From an uncultured virus (IMG/VR IMGVR_UViG_3300031715_000005) (lineage: Duplodnaviria > Heunggongvirae > Uroviricota > Caudoviricetes): 20,000 bases of DNA. The stretch is taken from IMG/VR virus record IMGVR_UViG_3300031715_000005. One strand, written 5' to 3'. Position 1 is the first letter of the stretch. Each line of letters opens with the position of its first letter. The translations under genes and the position numbers were made by a program. The notes below the pieces were generated by a model. The model was not told the origin of the DNA, did not search any database, and was given only the letters and a program-made list of their open reading frames with translations. Of the stretch, positions 4,104 through 18,555 are shown one piece after another.

Positions 4104-7100
4104 TGTTTTCCGTCAAGAAAATAGCTTTGCTGGTGGGAGCCTGCCTTCTTTTCTCAATTTCTTCTCCGGCGCAGAGTCCTCCGCCGACAATCTTCTTCAC
4201 CGATTTGGACAGTGGGCCAAACAGCGGGGGAGAAAGTGTCAGCGGGTTCGCCGGCGCGTACGTGACTATTTACGGGAATTTCTTTGGGACTTCCCAGGGC
4301 AGCTCAACGATCACTTGGAACGGGCTGAATTGCTTACGCGTGTTGCCGGTAACGGGAAATTACACGGGATGGGGCATGGCGCACCTGTGGTATCAGGAAA
4401 TTATCGTGCAGATCGGTCCAACGTGCACGGCGGCTACGGGAAGTTTCGTCGTCACGACGACAAACGGATCATCGAACGGGTTGGCGTTCACGGTCCGGAG
4501 CGGAAACATCTATTGTATTTCCAATTCGGGAAGCGATAGCAACAGCGGCGCTTTCCCAAGCTCCTGTTTTGCAACGCCGAAGTTTGCCTTCACCAAAATG
4601 AATGCGGGAGACACCGCTTATTGGGAAGGGGGCGTAGTCGTTTCTTCGGGTGGAAGTTTTTCCGCTTTGGATTGGGGCGCCAGCGGGACGGCCGGGAATC
4701 CGGTAGCGATGGTGTCTTATCCGGGAGCTTCACCGCAACCAGGGGTGCAGTGCAACCCCTGCCAGGACGGGTATGCAATCCGGGCCGCGCAGGGTTTCCC
4801 GGCTCAGGATAACTACCTCACGATGGCGGGGCTTTTCATTTCCGGAGATACATTCGCTTGGTTCTCGGAGTATGGAGGGACGAATCAGCGGTTTGTAGGG
4901 AACAAATTCACTTGTGTGGGAAATTCCGCAGCCGTCGGCTGTTTCCAGACTAGTCAGCAGACGTTCATCAAGTACTACGGAAACGAAGTCACCGGAATCG
5001 TGGCGGGAACACAGAGCGGCGGCAATGGGACCTCGAAGCAATACCACGCTGTCTACTTTTGCACCGACACGAATCACATCGAAGAAGCTTGGAACTCGAT
5101 CCATGACAACCTGAGCTGCAACGCTACCCAGGTCCATTCCTCGCCGGTGAATGGGACGACGGGTTTCGATCAGTACGACATTTCGATTCACGACAATCTT
5201 GTCCACGACGAACCGTGCACGGCTTTTCTTCTGGCCACGGTAGATCCCTCGCAGGGGAAAGTCGAGCTGTACAACAATGTCATTTATCACGTAGGAATTG
5301 GGCCGGCTCCGGCGGATGGCGAAGAAAGCGAAACGTGTTTCCGATTTGCTCAGATCATCAATAATTCTCCGCCCCTGCCAAGCGGGACTGCGGAGGTTTA
5401 TAACAATACGTGCGTGGACGCGGGTTCGTTCGTGGGAGCATTCGGGCATTCGGGATCGCTTGGCCTCGATTCCGGATCGACGGACATTGCCGTGCGATTC
5501 CGAAATAATATTTTCTATCAACTGTCGGGAGAGTTTTTCACGAACAGTGGAAGCGTGCCTGCCGCTAATGCTCCTCCGCTGTCCGGCTCCAACAATGTGT
5601 GGTTTGGGGGAAACCAGACAGCCCCTTCTTTTACGACAGGGAATCTGACGGCCGATCCGCTGTTCATCAATCGTTCGGTGAACAACCTGCACATACAAAC
5701 AACGAGCGAGGCGGTGAAGGCCGGAACGCTCATCAGCAATGCGACGACGTACAAAAGCTATCCGCCGTACCAGGGAAGCACGCCGATTGATCACGACAGC
5801 ATCCGCAGGTCGAATGCGCCTTCGATTGGAGCATACGAATTGGGGACGTTGCCGACGTTCGTTTACAGTGCGGTCGCGCCGTTGGCGATTCCTTCTGGAA
5901 GCGGATTCAGTGGTCCTAGCTCTTGCACGTCGGGTAATCCCTGCTACCGGATTCCGGTAGATCCCACGGCAATTACAGCGGGAAGCACGATCCTGCTTTC
6001 CTTTGGATACGACAGTACGAGCAGCAATCAGGTGTTTACGGTCACGGACGATCAAAGCGACACGTACACACTCGATGTGACTTCCTCGCAGAGCAACAAT
6101 AAGACGCTGAAAATCTACCGGGCCGTGAACGTCGCCGCAGGAGTGCATTACATCAACGTGCAACTCACTAGCGGAGCGGCCAACGGATATTGGCAGGGAC
6201 AAGTAGCTGTCTTTTACAATGCGAACAGTTTAGATGTGGCATCCTGCAACGCGGCCACTTCCACGACGGTCAGCGCCGGCAGCATGGTCGTGACTACCAG
6301 CGGGGACCTGATTTTTCAGGCGACCTATGCTTCAGCTCAAAATTCGGAGTCGTCGTTTACGGTTGGGTCACAAACCAATATTTCCTGGAATCTGGCTTCG
6401 ACGCTGTTGGGCGATGGAGCCGCAAGCCAGTACGGAGTCTACAATTCGACTTCGGCCATCAATCCGACGTTCACGCAAGCTTCCTCGAATGCGTACATCA
6501 GTTGCGCGGTGGCTTTGCTGGCCAATGCGACGGGAAGCGCGCCGACAACGATTCCTCGCGTGGTTCATCAGGAACACGACGCCATGCCGAAAAATTCAGC
6601 GAGTCCGTGGCACGTGGGCTTCGTTTTGGATGTCCCCAATTCGGCCGTGTATCTGTCCTATGTTGGCAACGATTCGATTTCGAGCGTGAGTTCGAGCCCT
6701 TCGCCTACCGGCACGGCCTGGACGGCGAGCGGATCGGATTTCACGGGGTTGAACGGCCACAATCACGTCAACTTTTACTGCGCGAGTTGGACCAGTCCGC
6801 CGGGATTTGTGAACCTCAGTATCAGCCGCGGCGGGACTTCGAACGACTCGATCAATATGATCTACGTCGTCCAGAACGCGACCTGCAACCTCGATGTGGA
6901 TTCAGCGGGCCAATCCGGGAATCAAACATCCGCAGGGTCATTGACCGTCTGTACGTCGTGTCTGACACCGACGAAACAAAATGATTTCATCATGTCCGAG
7001 GGTGGACAGGCGTTTTGCACGGCGACGAGCGCGACGTCGCCTTCGAATGCAAATTTTTCGACCGTTTGGTACACCGGCAATACGGTTGACGGCCCGACAC

Positions 7101-9446: not shown

Positions 9447-9495
9447 ACTCTTACGAAGGGTGCCTCTGTCCGTCTGAGCTAAAGGGAGTGGAGTC

Positions 9496-10236
9496 GTGAA
9501 ACTTGGAAAACTACCTAGGAAAATTCATTATAGGACGATCCCTTTTCCGAGGTTTCTGAGTGACACGGCTCCCGCTCCCGATCCCGCCAAGGTCTATTGG
9601 GAGTACAAGCTTCCTCAGAAAAATCTTCAGATGTTCAAGAACGACAGTCTTGGTTGCTGCACGGTTGCGGCAATTGCGCACATGATTATGAACATGACGG
9701 CGCACACGGGATCAATCGTGATCCCGACGGATGATCAGGTGGTGGAGTTTTATTCGGCTGTCAGCGGGTACGTGCCCGGAGATGAATCCACCGATAATGG
9801 AGCAACGATCACGGACGTTCTGGCGAGGTGGCAGAGCGTGGGGCTGGCCGGGCACAAAATCGCCGGGTGGGTGGAATTTGACTTTGGCAATCCGCAGCAT
9901 TTCGATTGGGCGCAGTATCTTTTCGGCGGCGCGGACTGCGGGATGCAGCTTCCTAATTCCGCGATGGAGCAGTTCAACGCCAACGAAGCTTGGGATGTTG
10001 TCACCAACGATGGCGGGATTGACGGTGGCCATAGCGTCCCGTATTTTGGGTATGGCTCCGCTGGCCGCATGGGTCTTACCTGGGCGAAGAATCAAGCGGC
10101 AACGAAGGCGTTCGAAGCGAAATATTTCGACGAGGCGTACGCGGTGTTCGGGCCGGATTGGTTTGACAACGCAAGCATCGCTCCGAACGGGTTCGACAAG
10201 GACGCGCTGTATGCGTACTGGAAAACGTTGAACTAA
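9496..10236 (+). CDS. Papain-like (clan CA) cysteine peptidase
   Basis: GTG start with GGAG RBS. Catalytic-type motifs NDSLGCCTVAA (Cys), GGHSV (His) and LTWA, plus DEAYAV. Confidence 0.75.
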   Translation: MKLGKLPRKIHYRTIPFPRFLSDTAPAPDPAKVYWEYKLPQKNLQMFKNDSLGCCTVAAIAHMIMNMTAHTGSIVIPTDDQVVEFYSAVSGYVPGDESTDNGATITDVLARWQSVGLAGHKIAGWVEFDFGNPQHFDWAQYLFGGADCGMQLPNSAMEQFNANEAWDVVTNDGGIDGGHSVPYFGYGSAGRMGLTWAKNQAATKAFEAKYFDEAYAVFGPDWFDNASIAPNGFDKDALYAYWKTLN

Positions 10237-10255: not shown

Positions 10256-10296
10256 GCGCGGGGTGGCGGATGAAACTGCCATCCCGCGTTAGTTTC
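10256..10296 (+). terminator. GC-rich hairpin, possible intrinsic terminator or processing site
   Basis: 14-bp stem GCGCGGGGTGGCGG (10256-10269) pairs with CTGCCATCCCGCGT (10276-10289) using 3 G-U pairs and a 6-nt loop. The U-tract is weak (TAGTTTC). Confidence 0.5.
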
Positions 10297-10312
10297 AAAA
10301 AAGGGGGACGTG

Positions 10313-10480
10313 ATGAAAGAAAATTTCTGGAAGTATAAGGGGTATATTCTTCATTGTGCGGCGGTGGCAATTATTTTCTTGACGCCTTCGGTGCAACAGG
10401 CTTTGCTTGCGCATCCGAAAACGTCGGCCGCTGGCACGGTGGTTTGGGGTTTCCTGCTTCATTGGGCGACTGGCAAGTAA
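10313..10480 (+). CDS. Putative holin (55 aa), not in the ORF track
   Basis: AAGGGGG RBS. MKENFWKYKGYILHCAAVAIIFLTPSVQQALLAHPKTSAAGTVVWGFLLHWATGK* has two hydrophobic segments, and its stop abuts the endolysin start. Confidence 0.65.
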   Translation: MKENFWKYKGYILHCAAVAIIFLTPSVQQALLAHPKTSAAGTVVWGFLLHWATGK

Positions 10481-11008
10481 GTGGACGCAATCTCATTGGC
10501 GAGGATCGGCGAACTGCATCCGGAGCTGGCGCGGCGCTGGACACAAGCCGATCAGCTCCTGGAAGCGCAGGGTATCCGCATCCGTGTAGATCAGGGATTG
10601 CGCACGATGTCACAGCAACAAAGCATCTGGCAGGAAGGCCGCAATCCGGATGGTTCCTTCATTGATCCGATCCATCGCAAAGGTGTGGTGACGTACGCCA
10701 AGGCCGGCCAGTCCTATCACAATTATGGCCTCGCGCTCGATGGCGTACCGATGGTGAACGGCGAGCCTGTGTGGGACCGGGAGACGGAACCGGGCTTGAC
10801 GCTGTATGCGAAAATGGTCACGGCCGGAGAGACGGTAGGGCTCACTTCGGGGTCTAGGTGGCCCGAACCCAAAACGGACTTTCCTCATTTTCAGTTGACG
10901 GGAAAATTCCTGGAAGATGAACCGGATGATTCGGTGAAGGCGCTCTTCGATGCTGGCGGACTTCCGGCAGTTTGGGCGCAGTTGGACAAGGATCTCGGTA
11001 TCGCTTGA
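10481..11008 (+). CDS. Endolysin, peptidase M15 family (L-Ala-D-Glu peptidase-like)
   Basis: Motifs GLRT..QQ, VTYAKAGQSYHNYGLALD (SxH...D zinc ligands) and DFPHFQ (DxxH). Confidence 0.9.
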   Translation: MDAISLARIGELHPELARRWTQADQLLEAQGIRIRVDQGLRTMSQQQSIWQEGRNPDGSFIDPIHRKGVVTYAKAGQSYHNYGLALDGVPMVNGEPVWDRETEPGLTLYAKMVTAGETVGLTSGSRWPEPKTDFPHFQLTGKFLEDEPDDSVKALFDAGGLPAVWAQLDKDLGIA

Positions 11009-11245: not shown

Positions 11246-11611
11246 ATGGAATCCACGCACGTCTATATCGTCGTTCTCCGCAATCTTGACCTTCCGGATC
11301 GGAAACTGTGCATGACTTCTGGCAGGATCGCCTCTCATGCGGTTCATGCGGCTGTAAAACTCCAACGCGCGCTTGGTTGCGACGTTTCCGAAAAGTGGAT
11401 CATCATTCTGTCTGTTGCAAACAATGTGGAATTGGAAACAGTCTGCCAAGAACTAAACCGCGAGAGGATTCAGTACGTGGAATACCGCGACGTGGACGAT
11501 GCTTTCCAGGGGCAACATTTAACCGCGATTGCAACTTTTCCGATGGAAAAGAATCAATCAGGGACGCTGAAAAAGCTACGCCCATGGCGCTGCGCTTGCA
11601 ACGAGATTTAA
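11246..11611 (+). CDS. Peptidyl-tRNA hydrolase 2 (PTH2)-like protein
   Basis: YIVVLRNL...MTSGRIASHAVHAA matches the PTH2 pattern xIVVRxDLxMSxGKxAAQxxHA. KWIILSV..EL and LTAIATFP...LKKL are also consistent, and the length is typical. Confidence 0.8.
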   Translation: MESTHVYIVVLRNLDLPDRKLCMTSGRIASHAVHAAVKLQRALGCDVSEKWIIILSVANNVELETVCQELNRERIQYVEYRDVDDAFQGQHLTAIATFPMEKNQSGTLKKLRPWRCACNEI

Positions 11612-11820: not shown

Positions 11821-11849
11821 TTGACAACTCTGTGGCCCTGTAGAAAGAT
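11821..11849 (+). promoter_or_regulatory. Rightward early promoter
   Basis: Perfect TTGACA (11821-11826), 17-nt spacer, weak -10 AAAGAT (11844-11849), with an A-rich UP-like tract upstream. Confidence 0.55.
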
Positions 11850-11856
11850 GCCTTCC

Positions 11857-12003
11857 ATGCCAGCGAAGGACATTCTCGTTGCGACGAAAATTGACGAAGC
11901 TCTGCACAAAAAGTTGGTGGCCAGAGCGAAGGAACAAGATCGCAGCATTGCCTATCTGATTCGCCAAGCGATAGAAAATCTTGTCAACGGTGGCCATAAG
12001 TGA
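11857..12003 (+). CDS. Ribbon-helix-helix (CopG/Arc-like) DNA-binding protein
   Basis: MPAKDILVATKIDEALHKKLVARAKEQDRSIAYLIRQAIENL shows the beta-strand, helix, RS-x-x-x-LIRxAI pattern. The start is placed at ATG 11857; 11848 is an alternative. Confidence 0.8.
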   Translation: MPAKDILVATKIDEALHKKLVARAKEQDRSIAYLIRQAIENLVNGGHK

Positions 12004-12111: not shown

Positions 12112-13119
12112 GTGGAAACGGCAATTACTTCTCCGAACGTAGAGAAGATCACGGCGGCTATTGCAACCCTTCAATCAAGGTTGGCCGCGATTACGGTAAT
12201 CGAGACGGAAGAGCAGTTCAGGGAAATAGCGGCGGTCAAGCTGGATGCCAAAGCGTACATCAAAAGCGTGGGGTTTGAGCTGGACCCTGGAATTGAAAAA
12301 GCCAAGGAAGTTGTACGACATCTAAACGATCAGAAAACCAAGTTTGTGAGTCCGGCTGAAAAAGTGGTTGAGGCTGCGGAAGAAAAGATTGCAGACAAGA
12401 ATCGCCGGGAGAGACTCGCGGCAGAGGCGGACACACGCCGGCGGAATCAAGAGGCACAAGCGAAGGCGGACCGTGAAGCAGCCGAAAAGAAACGGTTGGC
12501 CGATGAGGAAGCGGCGCGGCTGAAGAAAGCAGCCGATGAACAAGCGGAGCGGGATCGGCTTGCCGCTCAGAAGAAAGCGGATGAAGATAAAAAGGAAGCC
12601 GATAGAAAAGCGGAAGCCGATAGAAAAGCAAAACAAAAAGAAATTGATGATGCACGGGCGCGAGGCGTGGTGAACAAGCGTGAGGCTGAACGGTTGAAGA
12701 AAGAAACCGATGAGAAGGCCGCGCGGGACAAAAAAGTGGCTGACGAGAAAGCAGCGACCGACAAAAAGGCGGCTGACGAACAGGCAGAACGTGAAAAGAA
12801 AGAAGCTGCGGAAGCGGCGGAACGGTTGACGCAGCAAGCGGCCACGGATGCCGCCGTGATCCAGTCCAGCGTAGTCAAGGAAACGGTGCTGCCGAATCGA
12901 ATTGCCGTCGCTGGCCTTCGTGGAGGGGGGAAGTGGGTATTCACGGTCACGGATATCACGAAGATTCCTCGAAACCTGTTGTATCCGAATCCCAAGGATG
13001 ATGGAACCTTCGATCCGGAGAAACTCCCGCGGGTGGGAGATTTTGTCCGGAAAACGAAGGACAAAGAGAAGGCAGAGGCAGGATGTCCGGGGATCGAGGT
13101 CACGTTCATAGATCGGTAA
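12112..13119 (+). CDS. Phage coiled-coil protein with a long charged Ala/Glu/Lys/Arg linker
   Basis: AAGGAAGG RBS and GTG start. The C-terminal KWVFTVTDITKIPRNLL motif is of a type I associate with phage early/recombination modules. Confidence 0.75.
   Translation: METAITSPNVEKITAAIATLQSRLAAITVIETEEQFREIAAVKLDAKAYIKSVGFELDPGIEKAKEVVRHLNDQKTKFVSPAEKVVEAAEEKIADKNRRERLAAEADTRRRNQEAQAKADREAAEKKRLADEEAARLKKAADEQAERDRLAAQKKADEDKKEADRKAEADRKAKQKEIDDARARGVVNKREAERLKKETDEKAARDKKVADEKAATDKKAADEQAEREKKEAAEAAERLTQQAATDAAVIQSSVVKETVLPNRIAVAGLRGGGKWVFTVTDITKIPRNLLYPNPKDDGTFDPEKLPRVGDFVRKTKDKEKAEAGCPGIEVTFIDR
12594..12629 (+). repeat. Perfect 18-bp in-frame tandem duplication
   Basis: GGAAGCCGATAGAAAAGC occurs twice (12594-12611 and 12612-12629) and encodes EADRKA EADRKA. 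Confidence 0.9.
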
Positions 13120-13122
13120 GAG

Positions 13123-13423
13123 TTTGCTCGCATCGGGAGCGCAAGGGTGATTGCCTTTGAGGGGCCTGGTGCGGGTGAAAGGGCAGTGGTTGTCCGGAAG
13201 CGGTAAAGACGTAGCTCGTCGGTTGAAGGGGATACGGCACTTAGGTCGGACTGTTTTATGATCTCAGCGAAACAAACCGAGGGATGCATCCGTTTCCCAG
13301 TAGGGACGGAGATTCCCTTTCATGTACCGCAAGGAAGTTACAACCCCCTGCGGGAAAACTGAGGGAGAGTAGTTCTAAGAGTCAAACGTCGCAATGCCCA
13401 CCAACCATTGCCCATTAGAATTG
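13123..13423 (+). ncRNA. Candidate structured RNA of unassigned family
   Basis: About 310-nt gap in otherwise tightly packed genes. Several nested helices are visible, and many rely on G-U pairs that work only on the + strand (details in findings). Confidence 0.65.
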
Positions 13424-13431
13424 GAGAGATG

Positions 13432-14703
13432 ATGAAACGCGCAGCGAAACGAACGAAGGCAACTCCTCGACGGTCGCTCGGACGCCGACGGTTACGAGCG
13501 AAGCAAACGGCTATCGTGCACGTGCCACAGCCAGCGGCAATCCAACGGACATCCGATGTGCCGCGCGTGATGGAGACGGTCAAGGATTTGGAGCTGGTCC
13601 GGCGGTTTGTAATCAACTGCATGAACGTAGACCTGAAACGCGCGGAAGAACGCGCGAAACTTTTGGGGAAAAAGCTGAGTGAGGAGGAACGTCAGGCTCT
13701 TGAGGTAGATTGGGGAACCATCCCGAATGTGGACAAACCTTTCCTAAAACAACCCGGTGCGGAAAAATATAACTTCTGGCTGAAGTTGAAGCCGAAGTAT
13801 CACAAACAAACGACGGAGCTGGAAGGTGGACACTTGGAAATGGTCTGCCACGTGTCGTTGCTTACCAAGAAAGGCGGGGAAGAAATTTTCGAGGGGCCGG
13901 ACGCCTCTTGTACGACGATGGAATCCAATTACCGATTCCGCTGGAGAAAGTGCGAAGGCAATGAGAAAGATCCTGTGCCATCAGAAGCAGAGCAAGCGCA
14001 ACTGAAGAGAGAAGGGCGCGGTCGCTGGCAATTGACACAAGAATGGATTCATGGGGTCAAGCAAAAAGAAAAGGTTTGGAAGTGGTTTGAGCGCGTCAAC
14101 AATCCGAATATTTGGGATGAACGGAACAAGGTCCGCCAGATGGGAGAGAAGCGCGGGTTGGTCAAAGCGGTCCGCGGGTGCGGCGCCATGTCGGAGCTGT
14201 TCGTAGCCTCTCCGGATGAGTGGGACGTTGGACCGGAAGAGGAAGGAAGCCCGGTCGTAGACGCGGATCACACGGAAAGCGGCCGCCGGGTAGTAAATGA
14301 ACAGGGATTCGCGCCGTCCGGCAAGCCAGTTACCCAGGAAGCCTACCATGAGCAAGGGCAGGCTATTGCACGTGCGAAAGCAGAGGAATTGAGGAGAAAG
14401 ATGGAGCAAGAGGAGAAACAGCCTCCAGCGCAGCCGAAAAGCGATTATGTCCAGAAGGTCGAGCAAGAGTACGAGGAAAACCGGGTGGTTTACTTGATCA
14501 GGACCAAAACTAGCAATGACGTGAGAGTTTTGGGTTGGTTGGGCGATGGAGCAATGGAAGAGTTCCTAGGGAACGTCAATGCCAAGCGAATCGAGGACGA
14601 ATTGGACCGCTCTGTCTCCTGGAAGTTTGGACAGGAGTACGTCCCCAAGTTCAATGCTGTCTGCCAGCAGTTGAAGATTAACGTCGAGAAGATCGGCCCA
14701 TGA
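13432..14703 (+). CDS. Putative phage single-strand annealing/recombination protein
   Basis: GGAG RBS (ATG 13429 is an alternative start). DWGTIPNVDKPFLKQPGAEK and NKVRQMGEKRGLVKAVR...SELF match the widespread phage family DYGxIPGxxKPxLxKPGAEK...KMAxKRAxVxAV. An acidic linker and a C-terminal domain follow. Confidence 0.6.
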   Translation: MKRAAKRTKATPRRSLGRRRLRAKQTAIVHVPQPAAIQRTSDVPRVMETVKDLELVRRFVINCMNVDLKRAEERAKLLGKKLSEEERQALEVDWGTIPNVDKPFLKQPGAEKYNFWLKLKPKYHKQTTELEGGHLEMVCHVSLLTKKGGEEIFEGPDASCTTMESNYRFRWRKCEGNEKDPVPSEAEQAQLKREGRGRWQLTQEWIHGVKQKEKVWKWFERVNNPNIWDERNKVRQMGEKRGLVKAVRGCGAMSELFVASPDEWDVGPEEEGSPVVDADHTESGRRVVNEQGFAPSGKPVTQEAYHEQGQAIARAKAEELRRKMEQEEKQPPAQPKSDYVQKVEQEYEENRVVYLIRTKTSNDVRVLGWLGDGAMEEFLGNVNAKRIEDELDRSVSWKFGQEYVPKFNAVCQQLKINVEKIGP

Positions 14704-14861
14704 CCATCCCCTCCAACCGTAAGGGAGCGCGGGGCGGGAAGCGTGTGCGGGAGTGTGAGGATTGCGGCGAAGAAGTGAAAGGCCGTCGTTTCCGCTGCCG
14801 CGATTGCAAGAAGCTAGTCTGTAGCTGGTGCAGCGGCCATGCTCACAGGTGTAGAAAGTGA
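14700..14861 (+). CDS. 53-aa AN1/B-box-like zinc-finger protein, not in the ORF track
   Basis: ATGA overlap. MTIPSNRKGARGGKRVRECEDCGEEVKGRRFRCRDCKKLVCSWCSGHAHRCRK*. Confidence 0.7.
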   Translation: MTIPSNRKGARGGKRVRECEDCGEEVKGRRFRCRDCKKLVCSWCSGHAHRCRK

Positions 14862-15118: not shown

Positions 15119-15335
15119 CAGGCGCAGTAAACACATGCCCCAATACGACCTTTTGTGTCCACCACGTTGCCCGAAGTGCGGCTGAATTACGATGATTCGC
15201 TATCGCAGGCCGGATAAAGCGCGTTGCAATTCCTGCGGGCATGTCGCGCAGATGTTTGAATTTTACAGTCACGGGCAAAGCTATCTCGCGTTGCGAACAA
15301 CTTGGCAAGCGAAGTTGAAGGGCGAGGAGGATTAG
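15108..15335 (+). pseudogene. Zinc-ribbon gene interrupted by an in-frame TGA (pseudogene, readthrough or sequencing error)
   Basis: GGGAGG RBS. MASDRRSKHMPQYDLLCPPRCPKCG*ITMIRYRRPDKARCNSCGH...EED*, with the TGA at 15183-15185. The final stop abuts the next gene. Confidence 0.65.
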
Positions 15336-17820: not shown

Positions 17821-18555
17821 ATGAGAGAATCATACAAACCGACGAGCCGCAATTGGGTGAAGCTTTGGGTCAATGAGTTTCTTGATGGAACGACTCGTCT
17901 GGATATGACCGGGGCGCAGAGAGCTTTTTGGTGTGACCTTCTATGTCTAGGAGGTCGTTCGCGCATCCCTGGTGTCATTTGCTCCGGGGAAACAAACGGG
18001 AAAATCCTAGGCTTCCCGATTATCAAACTGAAGGCTCTGGCGCTGGAAGAAATTGATGTAGAACAGACCTTGAGGCTTTTTGTAGAAACAGGCAAGGTGG
18101 AGACTTCTTATTCGACGGCCGGCACCGTGAAGTTAGTGACTATCAAGATTTGCAAATGGGAGAAATACCAGTCGGAGTACCACCGACAAAAGAAGTATCG
18201 AGAGACTCGCGTCAAAAAAAACGGTAAGGTGACTAATAAAGTTACAAGCGAAAAAACGTCGAAGTTACCAGTAGAGGAAGAAGGAGATGTAGAAGTAGAG
18301 GGAGATGAGAGGCAGGGGAACATCGCCGCCGCCTTCTCTGTAATGAATTGTGAGCCTTATGGGCCAAAAGAGTTTCGAAGGATTTGGTTGGAGGAGTGGA
18401 CGGTGCCGGGGAATCCGTCGTTCGCGGATGCGATGGAGCGGGCGGCACAGAGATGCGCGAGTCTTAGGATCAAGGTGCCTGGGAGATTCTTCGCACACAA
18501 GCGGGAGATCGAGAAAATCGAGGCGGAGAAAAATTACGAGAAAAAGCGACCATGA
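17821..18555 (+). CDS. Phage replication initiator / replisome organizer-like protein
   Basis: N-terminal WVKLWVNEFL...MTGAQRAFWCDLLCLGG, then I..WEKYQ...RQKKYRE, a low-complexity linker ending EEEGDVEVEG, and a C-terminal domain. This is the lambda-O-like architecture. Confidence 0.75.
   Translation: MRESYKPTSRNWVKLWVNEFLDGTTRLDMTGAQRAFWCDLLCLGGRSRIPGVICSGETNGKILGFPIIKLKALALEEIDVEQTLRLFVETGKVETSYSTAGTVKLVTIKICKWEKYQSEYHRQKKYRETRVKKNGKVTNKVTSEKTSKLPVEEEGDVEVEGDERQGNIAAAFSVMNCEPYGPKEFRRIWLEEWTVPGNPSFADAMERAAQRCASLRIKVPGRFFAHKREIEKIEAEKNYEKKRP

Follow-up and report, generated by a model that had tools for sequence, protein, structure and literature searches.

A candidate structured RNA specific to one lineage of soil phage, in the gap upstream of a RecT/Rad52-like annealase gene

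Known phage RNAs and the intergenic gap

The CI RNA of P4, the C4 RNA of P1 and P7 and small RNAs of 3'-UTR or intergenic origin are cut from longer transcripts, and the CI and C4 RNAs, which are about 70-80 nt long, are antisense to known targets. GOLLD and ROOL are large ornate non-coding RNAs that are frequent in prophages, as summarised in PMC5737381, and they are presented as RNA-only assemblies in 10.1101/2024.12.08.627333. The early precursor RNA of T7, in the account given by PMC3867540, carries five RNase III processing signals in which internal loops give single-strand cuts, with stabilising 3' hairpins, and the same source gives 22 bp, or two helical turns, as the idealised substrate of the enzyme.

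Here we describe an element lying between two genes of an uncultured soil phage that in kind is nearest to the GOLLD/ROOL-like accessory RNAs and to intercistronic RNase III signals, with similarity of sequence or model to neither. With GOLLD and ROOL it shares the character of a large multi-junction non-coding RNA, accessory to phage or prophage DNA and unsettled in function; however, their Rfam models do not match the gap even at E <= 10 and, compared with ROOL (581 nt), the RNA of the gap would be half as long and has neither a tRNA neighbour nor a family of homologues. The R-sites of T7 are likewise irregular hairpins, some two helical turns long and interrupted by an internal loop, between cistrons of the early operon, and the first hairpin of our element (hairpin A, see below) has about 22-23 bp, but the phage element is five times larger and includes a 233-nt multi-branched domain. 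Moreover, cleavage of the element by RNase III would be a prediction, and a contig from an RNA library runs continuously through hairpin A. Like the CI and C4 RNAs, the RNA would be released from a phage transcript by host RNases, with its closing helix setting the mature ends; unlike them it would measure about 290 nt, and no target was seen.

The window, by which we mean the whole 20,000-nt stretch of the IMG/VR record IMGVR_UViG_3300031715_000005 that was analysed, has every recognisable gene on the + strand. Large tail-type proteins are encoded up to about 9.4 kb, an M15 endolysin at 10481-11008, and a rightward early region is opened at 11821-12003 by a 60-aa ribbon-helix-helix (RHH) protein (Pfam RHH_1, 21.6 bits against a cut-off of 20.5), which is likely a transcription regulator. 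The gap under study extends over 312 nt between an upstream stop codon (13117-13119) and the next start ATG (13431/13434). All six of its frames are interrupted by stops, its G+C content is 0.53 and hence not A+T-rich, no iterons or sizeable repeats were found in it, and a search for a decayed gene by six-frame tblastn against the loci of 36 relatives gave E 0.11 at best. Neither a sigma-70-like promoter nor an intrinsic terminator was found around the element, which thus gives no sign of being an independent gene, and the RNA is assumed to be released from a longer transcript. The preliminary description of this DNA had called the gap the only long non-coding one of the early operon, which may be so among the gaps that were inspected, as these contain small ORFs (a 56-aa ORF at 10310-10480 and the RHH gene); a further gap lies at 15119-15335.

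Three features of the region before the early operon may be recorded here. The 56-aa product is hydrophobic and, being encoded directly before the M15 endolysin, is possibly a holin. Directly after ORF 9496-10236, at 10256-10290, stands a terminator-like element made of a strong, G+C-rich hairpin with a U-run behind it, and the 244-nt stretch holding this hairpin and the 56-aa ORF has folding z-scores of -3.27 on the + strand and -2.78 on the - strand. Finally, a 121-aa protein encoded at 11246-11611, between the lysis genes and the early region, matches PTH2 (peptidyl-tRNA hydrolase 2; E 3e-6) and is an unusual cargo for a phage.

The gene upstream of the gap (12112-13119, + strand) encodes a 335-aa protein rich in Lys, Glu and Ala that was assigned to no family and has 18 homologues, none of them informatively named. 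The gene downstream (13432-14703, + strand) encodes a 423-aa protein that, according to structure matches, is probably of the RecT/Rad52/ERF superfamily of annealing proteins. Its AlphaFold model (mean pLDDT 79) has as its top BFVD match a 'RecT family protein' (E 1.7e-8, probability 1.0) at 21% identity over 238 columns, with weaker ERF and Rad52 matches below it, and residues 109-269 match Rad52 at Z 7.2 and 7.1, tied with dsRBD folds. By sequence the protein has no match in Pfam or the PDB and falls in phrog_10048, of unknown function. We read it from these models as a single-strand annealing protein, and the preliminary placement of the gap within a recombination module was thus fair. Residues 351-423 resemble the N-terminal domain of T4 UvsW (Z 7.3) and XPB (Z 6.7), with 57-63 residues aligned; such a C-terminal domain is an unusual fusion for a protein of RecT/Rad52 type. 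The ribosome-binding site GGAGAG (13423-13428, + strand) and the ATG ATG start that follows it (to 13434) are unpaired in the minimum free energy (MFE) structure, and the structured element fills the space from 3 nt past the upstream stop codon to 10 nt before this site.

Predicted folds and folding energy

The nine helices proposed in the preliminary description are each fully complementary. Hairpin A (13123-13179, + strand) consists of a lower stem, 13123-13137/13165-13179, in which 15 of 15 positions pair (five as G-U; mean pair probability 0.97), and an upper stem, 13142-13148/13153-13159, in which 7 of 7 do (two as G-U; mean 0.99), separated by an internal loop with a possible C13140-G13162 pair and capped by the loop GAUU, which gives about 22-23 bp in total. 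The main domain (13181-13413, + strand) is closed by a 12-bp helix, 13181-13192/13402-13413 (12/12 pairs, one G-U), from which short helices and internal loops lead to an extension at 13208-13217/13379-13390, with pair probabilities of 0.89-0.99. The remaining complementary segments are 13200-13205/13325-13330 (6/6), 13224-13232/13314-13322 (9/9), 13246-13249/13277-13280 (4/4) and 13252-13257/13269-13274 (6/6), together with GACGT 13208-13212/ACGTC 13386-13390 and CTTAG 13240-13244/CTAAG 13375-13379 (5/5 each). An internal hairpin at 13289-13310 (+ strand; 4+4 bp, loop AGUA, basal 4 bp at P 0.96) was flagged by a terminator scan, and the RNA-library contig reads through it.

Six sequence contexts were folded, enlarged stepwise up to 12700-13900 and so to at most 400 nt of flanking sequence at either end. 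In each of them the MFE structure kept the closing helix with its extension, hairpin A and the internal hairpin at P >= 0.89, and the element is, in these predictions, an insulated folding unit. A direct repeat links 13265-13282, a strand of an internal hairpin of the RNA, with 13442-13459, codons 4-9 of the annealase gene, 15 of the 18 positions being identical. This similarity may be due to chance; the two copies are in sense orientation and, if the repeat is real, either of them could be bound by the partner strand 13246-13260.

Pseudoknots had been suggested from pairs that appeared to cross, and these proved not to be needed. The pairs fit a second nested fold of near-equal energy, and the interior of the main domain is predicted to have two competing nested folds, A and B, which share the hairpin at 13289-13310. 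The GACGU/ACGUC helix is nested in the MFE structure (P 0.96), and the helices 13200-13205/13325-13330 and CUUAG/CUAAG have probabilities of 0.00-0.01. Fold A is the MFE structure of the window sequence and fold B that of a natural variant; fold B uses 13248-13256/13367-13375 and 13262-13267/13359-13364 and shares its topology with the supposedly crossing pairs. The energy balance depends on the haplotype, fold A being ahead by 4.1 kcal/mol in the window and fold B by 1.9 and 2.9 kcal/mol in the other two.

Two substitutions distinguish the natural variants (+ strand). The U>G change at 13313 affects a position that is unpaired in fold A and converts U13285.U into U13285.G in fold B. The U>C change at 13370, which is present in the homologous locus L005 and in the contigs X1, X3 and X4 of public soil runs, breaks the pair with A13340 in fold A and turns G13253.U into G13253-C in fold B. 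Both substitutions therefore keep or create pairs in fold B and one breaks a pair in fold A, which is a hint in favour of B within these models; two substitutions prove little about the fold. Variants are as dense in the gap (2 in about 295 nt) as in its neighbourhood (21 in 2735 nt).

The comparison of folding energy with shuffled sequences gave a marked excess of structure for the RNA of the + strand, with an MFE of -116.7 kcal/mol (z -3.81) and none of 100 shuffles folding as well. For 13123-13413 of the same strand z was -3.69 and 1 of 1000 dinucleotide shuffles folded equally well, and the variant of 99.4% identity gave z -3.53 (0 of 100). RNA of the - strand was ordinary (z -0.12, 44 of 100 shuffles as good), and so were the folds computed with DNA parameters, with z -1.43 for the + strand (11 of 100 as good) and z -0.33 for the - strand. 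The excess is thus confined to + strand RNA and fits an RNA read from that strand, on which all neighbouring genes lie.

Folding energy by itself does not single out the gap. Among 130 fixed 300-nt windows of the + strand, coding windows reached z -3.77 (5401-5700) and z -3.45 (12451-12750), and the grid windows that cut through the element gave only z -1.8 to -2.4. Local folds with optimised boundaries within coding DNA reached z -6.5, -5.1 and -4.4 in a comparison with RNALfold that did not return 13181-13413 as a unit and gauges only how low the z-scores of coding DNA go. The two lowest, on the + strand at 4480-4685 (z -6.5) and 9468-9733 (z -5.1), with 30 shuffles each, both beat the gap element by this measure; the former lies inside the gene of a 1159-aa tail-type protein and the latter spans the start of ORF 9496-10236. 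The gap stands out by the combination of its non-coding nature, its strand asymmetry, the helices that unite both of its ends and the contig from an RNA library.

Identity searches and relatives of the locus

A search of Rfam 15 (4227 models) connected the element to no known RNA family, with no match at the gathering score in the whole window and none at E <= 10 on either strand of 12900-13650 and of 13115-13432. The models included those for RNase P, tmRNA, 6S, SRP and Y RNA, riboswitches, HEARO/omega RNAs, IS605-orfB, retron msr/RT motifs, GOLLD, ROOL and small ribozymes. ARAGORN found no tRNA or tmRNA gene in the window, and nothing pointed to the ribozyme that had been entertained as one identity for the gap. 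In the test for a MITE-like repeat, a covariance model matched the window at a single place. Hairpin A, with its 15 + 1 + 7 bp, fits the pattern of a T7-type RNase III signal, namely an irregular intercistronic hairpin of about 20-22 bp with an internal loop.

Several specific candidates were dropped. On inspection, parts of the sequence resembled a segment of RNase P RNA and the core words of group I introns, but no Rfam model matched; for the group I intron, moreover, Intron_gpI gave no match at E <= 10 and the candidate P3/P7-like crossing pairs resolve into the nested alternative. An intron interrupting a gene is also contradicted by the neighbours, which are both whole genes, homologues of the upstream protein aligning to its last residues (329-335) and those of the annealase from residues 1-2, with other genes standing between the homologues in relatives. 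The closing helix qualifies as inverted repeats resembling a1/a2 of a retron msr-msd, a feature that alone is not specific; a retron is disfavoured, as the downstream gene encodes the RecT/Rad52-like annealase and none of the 25 window proteins scanned matches a reverse transcriptase family.

Searches for other copies by nucleotide sequence gave little. Exact-word scans of IMG/VR with three words of 19-23 nt, a method that finds near-identical copies only, returned no match, and a 20-nt word had two matches in 596 billion bases of genomes, both in unrelated sequence with covariance-model scores below 10 bits and taken as chance. With 2.7 kb as the query, blastn against 50,697 phage records found nothing at 1e-5 and, at E <= 10, three matches of 25-30 nt at E 4, likewise taken as chance. 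Literature searches on structured or large noncoding RNAs of phages, on soil metatranscriptomes and on annealing proteins brought up no comparable RNA.

The annealase has 90 homologues in metagenomes, and 37 annealase loci were examined, 4 viral and 33 metagenomic. By blastn and nhmmer only one of them, L005, carries a copy of the element, 99.4% identical across the gap with two substitutions. The other 36 loci encode annealases of 30-57% protein identity, 29 of them with at least 300 nt of sequence upstream of the matched part. A covariance model of the main domain (R1), built from two near-identical sequences and hence of limited reach, had no match in these 36 loci, in four whole viral records or in 13 further loci found through the upstream protein. 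The RNA was accordingly absent from all 49 of the more distant loci, each of which has one or both of the neighbouring genes. Scans of IMG/VR proteins for close relatives of either neighbour found none, and the genome collection held no relative of the annealase.

What the relatives carry at this place instead is informative. Both neighbours have homologues in 10 of the loci, and each of the nine spacers read for ORFs holds one of at least 30 aa, the spacer of L027 being counted with that of L017 as the same sequence by eye; outside this set, a 6237-bp JGI contig encodes the two neighbours at 65% identity (P0091, P0002). The spacer genes include a free-standing HNH endonuclease (L011, 373-837; phrog_374, E 1.4e-34), a weak and truncated HNH match (L013, 1824-2021; E 1.2e-5) and genes with a KTSC domain (L015, 539-760; L022, 568-879; L006, 1266-1475; E 2e-22 to 6e-10); in L003 the 200-nt space before the gene reads by eye as a small ORF. 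In the 13 viral loci found through the upstream protein the next ORF begins within at most 146 nt. From these sequence comparisons the slot between the 335-aa gene and the annealase gene appears to be a variable cargo site, a hotspot for small mobile or accessory genes, and the RNA would be specific to this phage lineage. Relatives that share its neighbours lack it, and we therefore rank an autonomous role over regulation of the annealase in cis and over a functionless remnant. The absence in homologues counts against a conserved regulator; a lineage-specific RNA is not refuted thereby.

A second variable slot was seen just after the annealase gene, at 14699-14859. The window carries there, at 14700-14861, a 53-aa zinc-finger-like ORF, in contig X1 123 letters (14736-14858) are replaced by 251 others, and at 14699/14700 and 14735/14750 there are breaks with loose ends in the contigs from X1, X2 and X3.

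The soil RNA-library contig and competing explanations

Four public soil runs, found with an 801-nt query, contain the stretch, and one of them, X4, is a metatranscriptome (61 million letters). It yielded a single contig of 272 nt (13134-13405, with a depth of 8.88), which lies wholly inside the gap, its ends falling 11 and 8 nt within the predicted ends of the structure. The contig departs from the window at two letters, 13313 T>G and 13370 T>C, both of which it shares with the DNA contigs L005 and X1. It is one assembled contig of one small library, it gives neither the strand nor the true ends of the molecule, and DNA may occur in RNA libraries. By our estimate, chance would place a 272-nt piece that overlaps the 801-nt query wholly within the 312-nt gap in about 4 of 100 cases. 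The contig is continuous through hairpin A and the 13180/13181 junction, so that at least some molecules are uncut there. X4 has no contig over 12000-13133 or 13406-15000 and X2 has none over the gap, and such missing cover proves nothing about silence or abundance.

As a feature of the sequence the element is real, and it probably exists as an RNA. Our preferred reading, which we hold tentatively and at slightly less than even confidence, is that of a lineage-specific, stable and processed phage RNA carried as cargo in the variable slot upstream of the RecT/Rad52-like annealase gene. The gap would encode a separate RNA species with extensive base-pairing, about 290 nt in length (roughly 13123-13413, + strand), which would be transcribed with the rightward early operon starting near the RHH gene at 11821-12003. 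The strand 13165-13192 is predicted to pair with both the 5' segment 13123-13137 and the 3' segment 13402-13413, and the two ends of the RNA would then abut in one nearly continuous helix, about 27 bp long and interrupted by the bulged A13180 alone. We propose that, with its ends held in this helix, the RNA would be shielded from exonucleases and survive as a separate stable species, the double-stranded arms serving as RNase III-type substrates for its excision from the polycistronic transcript. We would expect a function of the RNA itself, such as binding a protein or serving as a decoy in the course of infection, rather than conserved control of the annealase gene; nothing in our analyses points to a particular target or partner. 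We infer the transcribed strand, the exact ends, the processing, the mechanism of stability and the action in trans. Against this reading, the predicted interior fold is ambiguous, the energy difference between folds A and B ranging from 1.9 to 4.1 kcal/mol among the variants.

An alternative, which we consider unlikely, is an intercistronic element acting in cis within the early mRNA. In that case RNase III-type signals for processing and stability, formed by hairpin A and the closing helix, would part the upstream cistron from that of the annealase, provide the new ends with protective hairpins and set the translation of the annealase, and the 272-nt piece would be a functionless by-product. 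In its favour, the element fills the space from the stop codon to an unpaired ribosome-binding site, no promoter or terminator of its own was found, and hairpin A, with its internal loop, has the size and shape of the idealised RNase III substrate as PMC3867540 gives it. However, a processing signal needs about 60 nt and not 290, the absence of the element from 49 of 49 loci of relatives indicates that the annealase gene does not need it, and the RNA-library contig is uncut through hairpin A and the 13180/13181 junction.

The gap may alternatively be a functionless spacer, a remnant of an insertion into a slot of fast turnover that folds well by chance, the contig then being a nuclease-resistant leftover of the transcript. 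We hold this to be improbable. In its favour, the element occurs in one lineage only, at a landing site for a homing endonuclease and other small genes, coding DNA of the window matches or beats its folding z-scores, and its density of variants, the same as in the neighbourhood, makes no extra constraint visible. Yet phage genomes are compact and the other gaps inspected hold ORFs, no trace of a decayed gene was detected in the gap, and the 15-bp and 12-bp helices that unite its ends, the strand asymmetry, the robustness to context and the 1 in 1000 shuffles would be unexpected of drifted sequence.

Single-strand origins have strand-specific structure, as this element does, and it stands at the start of a module that includes the annealase and, at 17821-18555, a weak match to a DnaD-like loader (E 0.001); a signal at the DNA level acting as folded single-stranded DNA, be it an origin, a single-strand initiation site or a recombination site, is nevertheless very improbable, given that the + strand does not fold significantly with DNA parameters (z -1.43, 11 of 100 shuffles as good), that the gap has no iterons or sizeable repeats and a G+C content of 0.53, and that the contig is present in an RNA library. 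Least credible of all is a small protein gene, the 44-codon ORF 13284-13418, in which both substitutions fall at third codon positions (one synonymous, one Asp>Glu; about 1 in 9 by chance), but whose GAGGG abuts the ATG without a spacer, whose polar, low-complexity product has no Pfam match and which covers less than half of the structured element, leaving hairpin A and the closing helix unexplained.

Of the initial proposal of a novel non-coding RNA, ribozyme or cis-regulator, what stands is thus a non-coding element with an autonomous + strand fold, no known family and a contig in an RNA library, and the pseudoknots and the ribozyme are not supported. Taking the reading of a lineage-specific processed RNA further, the element might be the founding member of a new class of large, structured, phage-borne RNAs. 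It would be a compact RNA of about 290 nt with its termini locked in a nicked helix of about 27 bp, would accumulate free in soil and would act on proteins of the host or the phage, perhaps as a decoy against a defence system sensing the annealase, or as a switch between its two folds of nearly equal energy; we regard this extension as rather unlikely.

The candidate is an orphan, and its value depends on homologues from larger metagenomes or on work at the bench, for which an RNA of this size, if real, would be short enough to be synthesised and probed directly. Few phage non-coding RNAs this large are known, and this candidate comes with a contig from an environmental RNA library. If real, it would count as an RNA "moron" of an uncultured soil phage, carried in a slot that in its relatives is taken by homing endonucleases and other small cargo.
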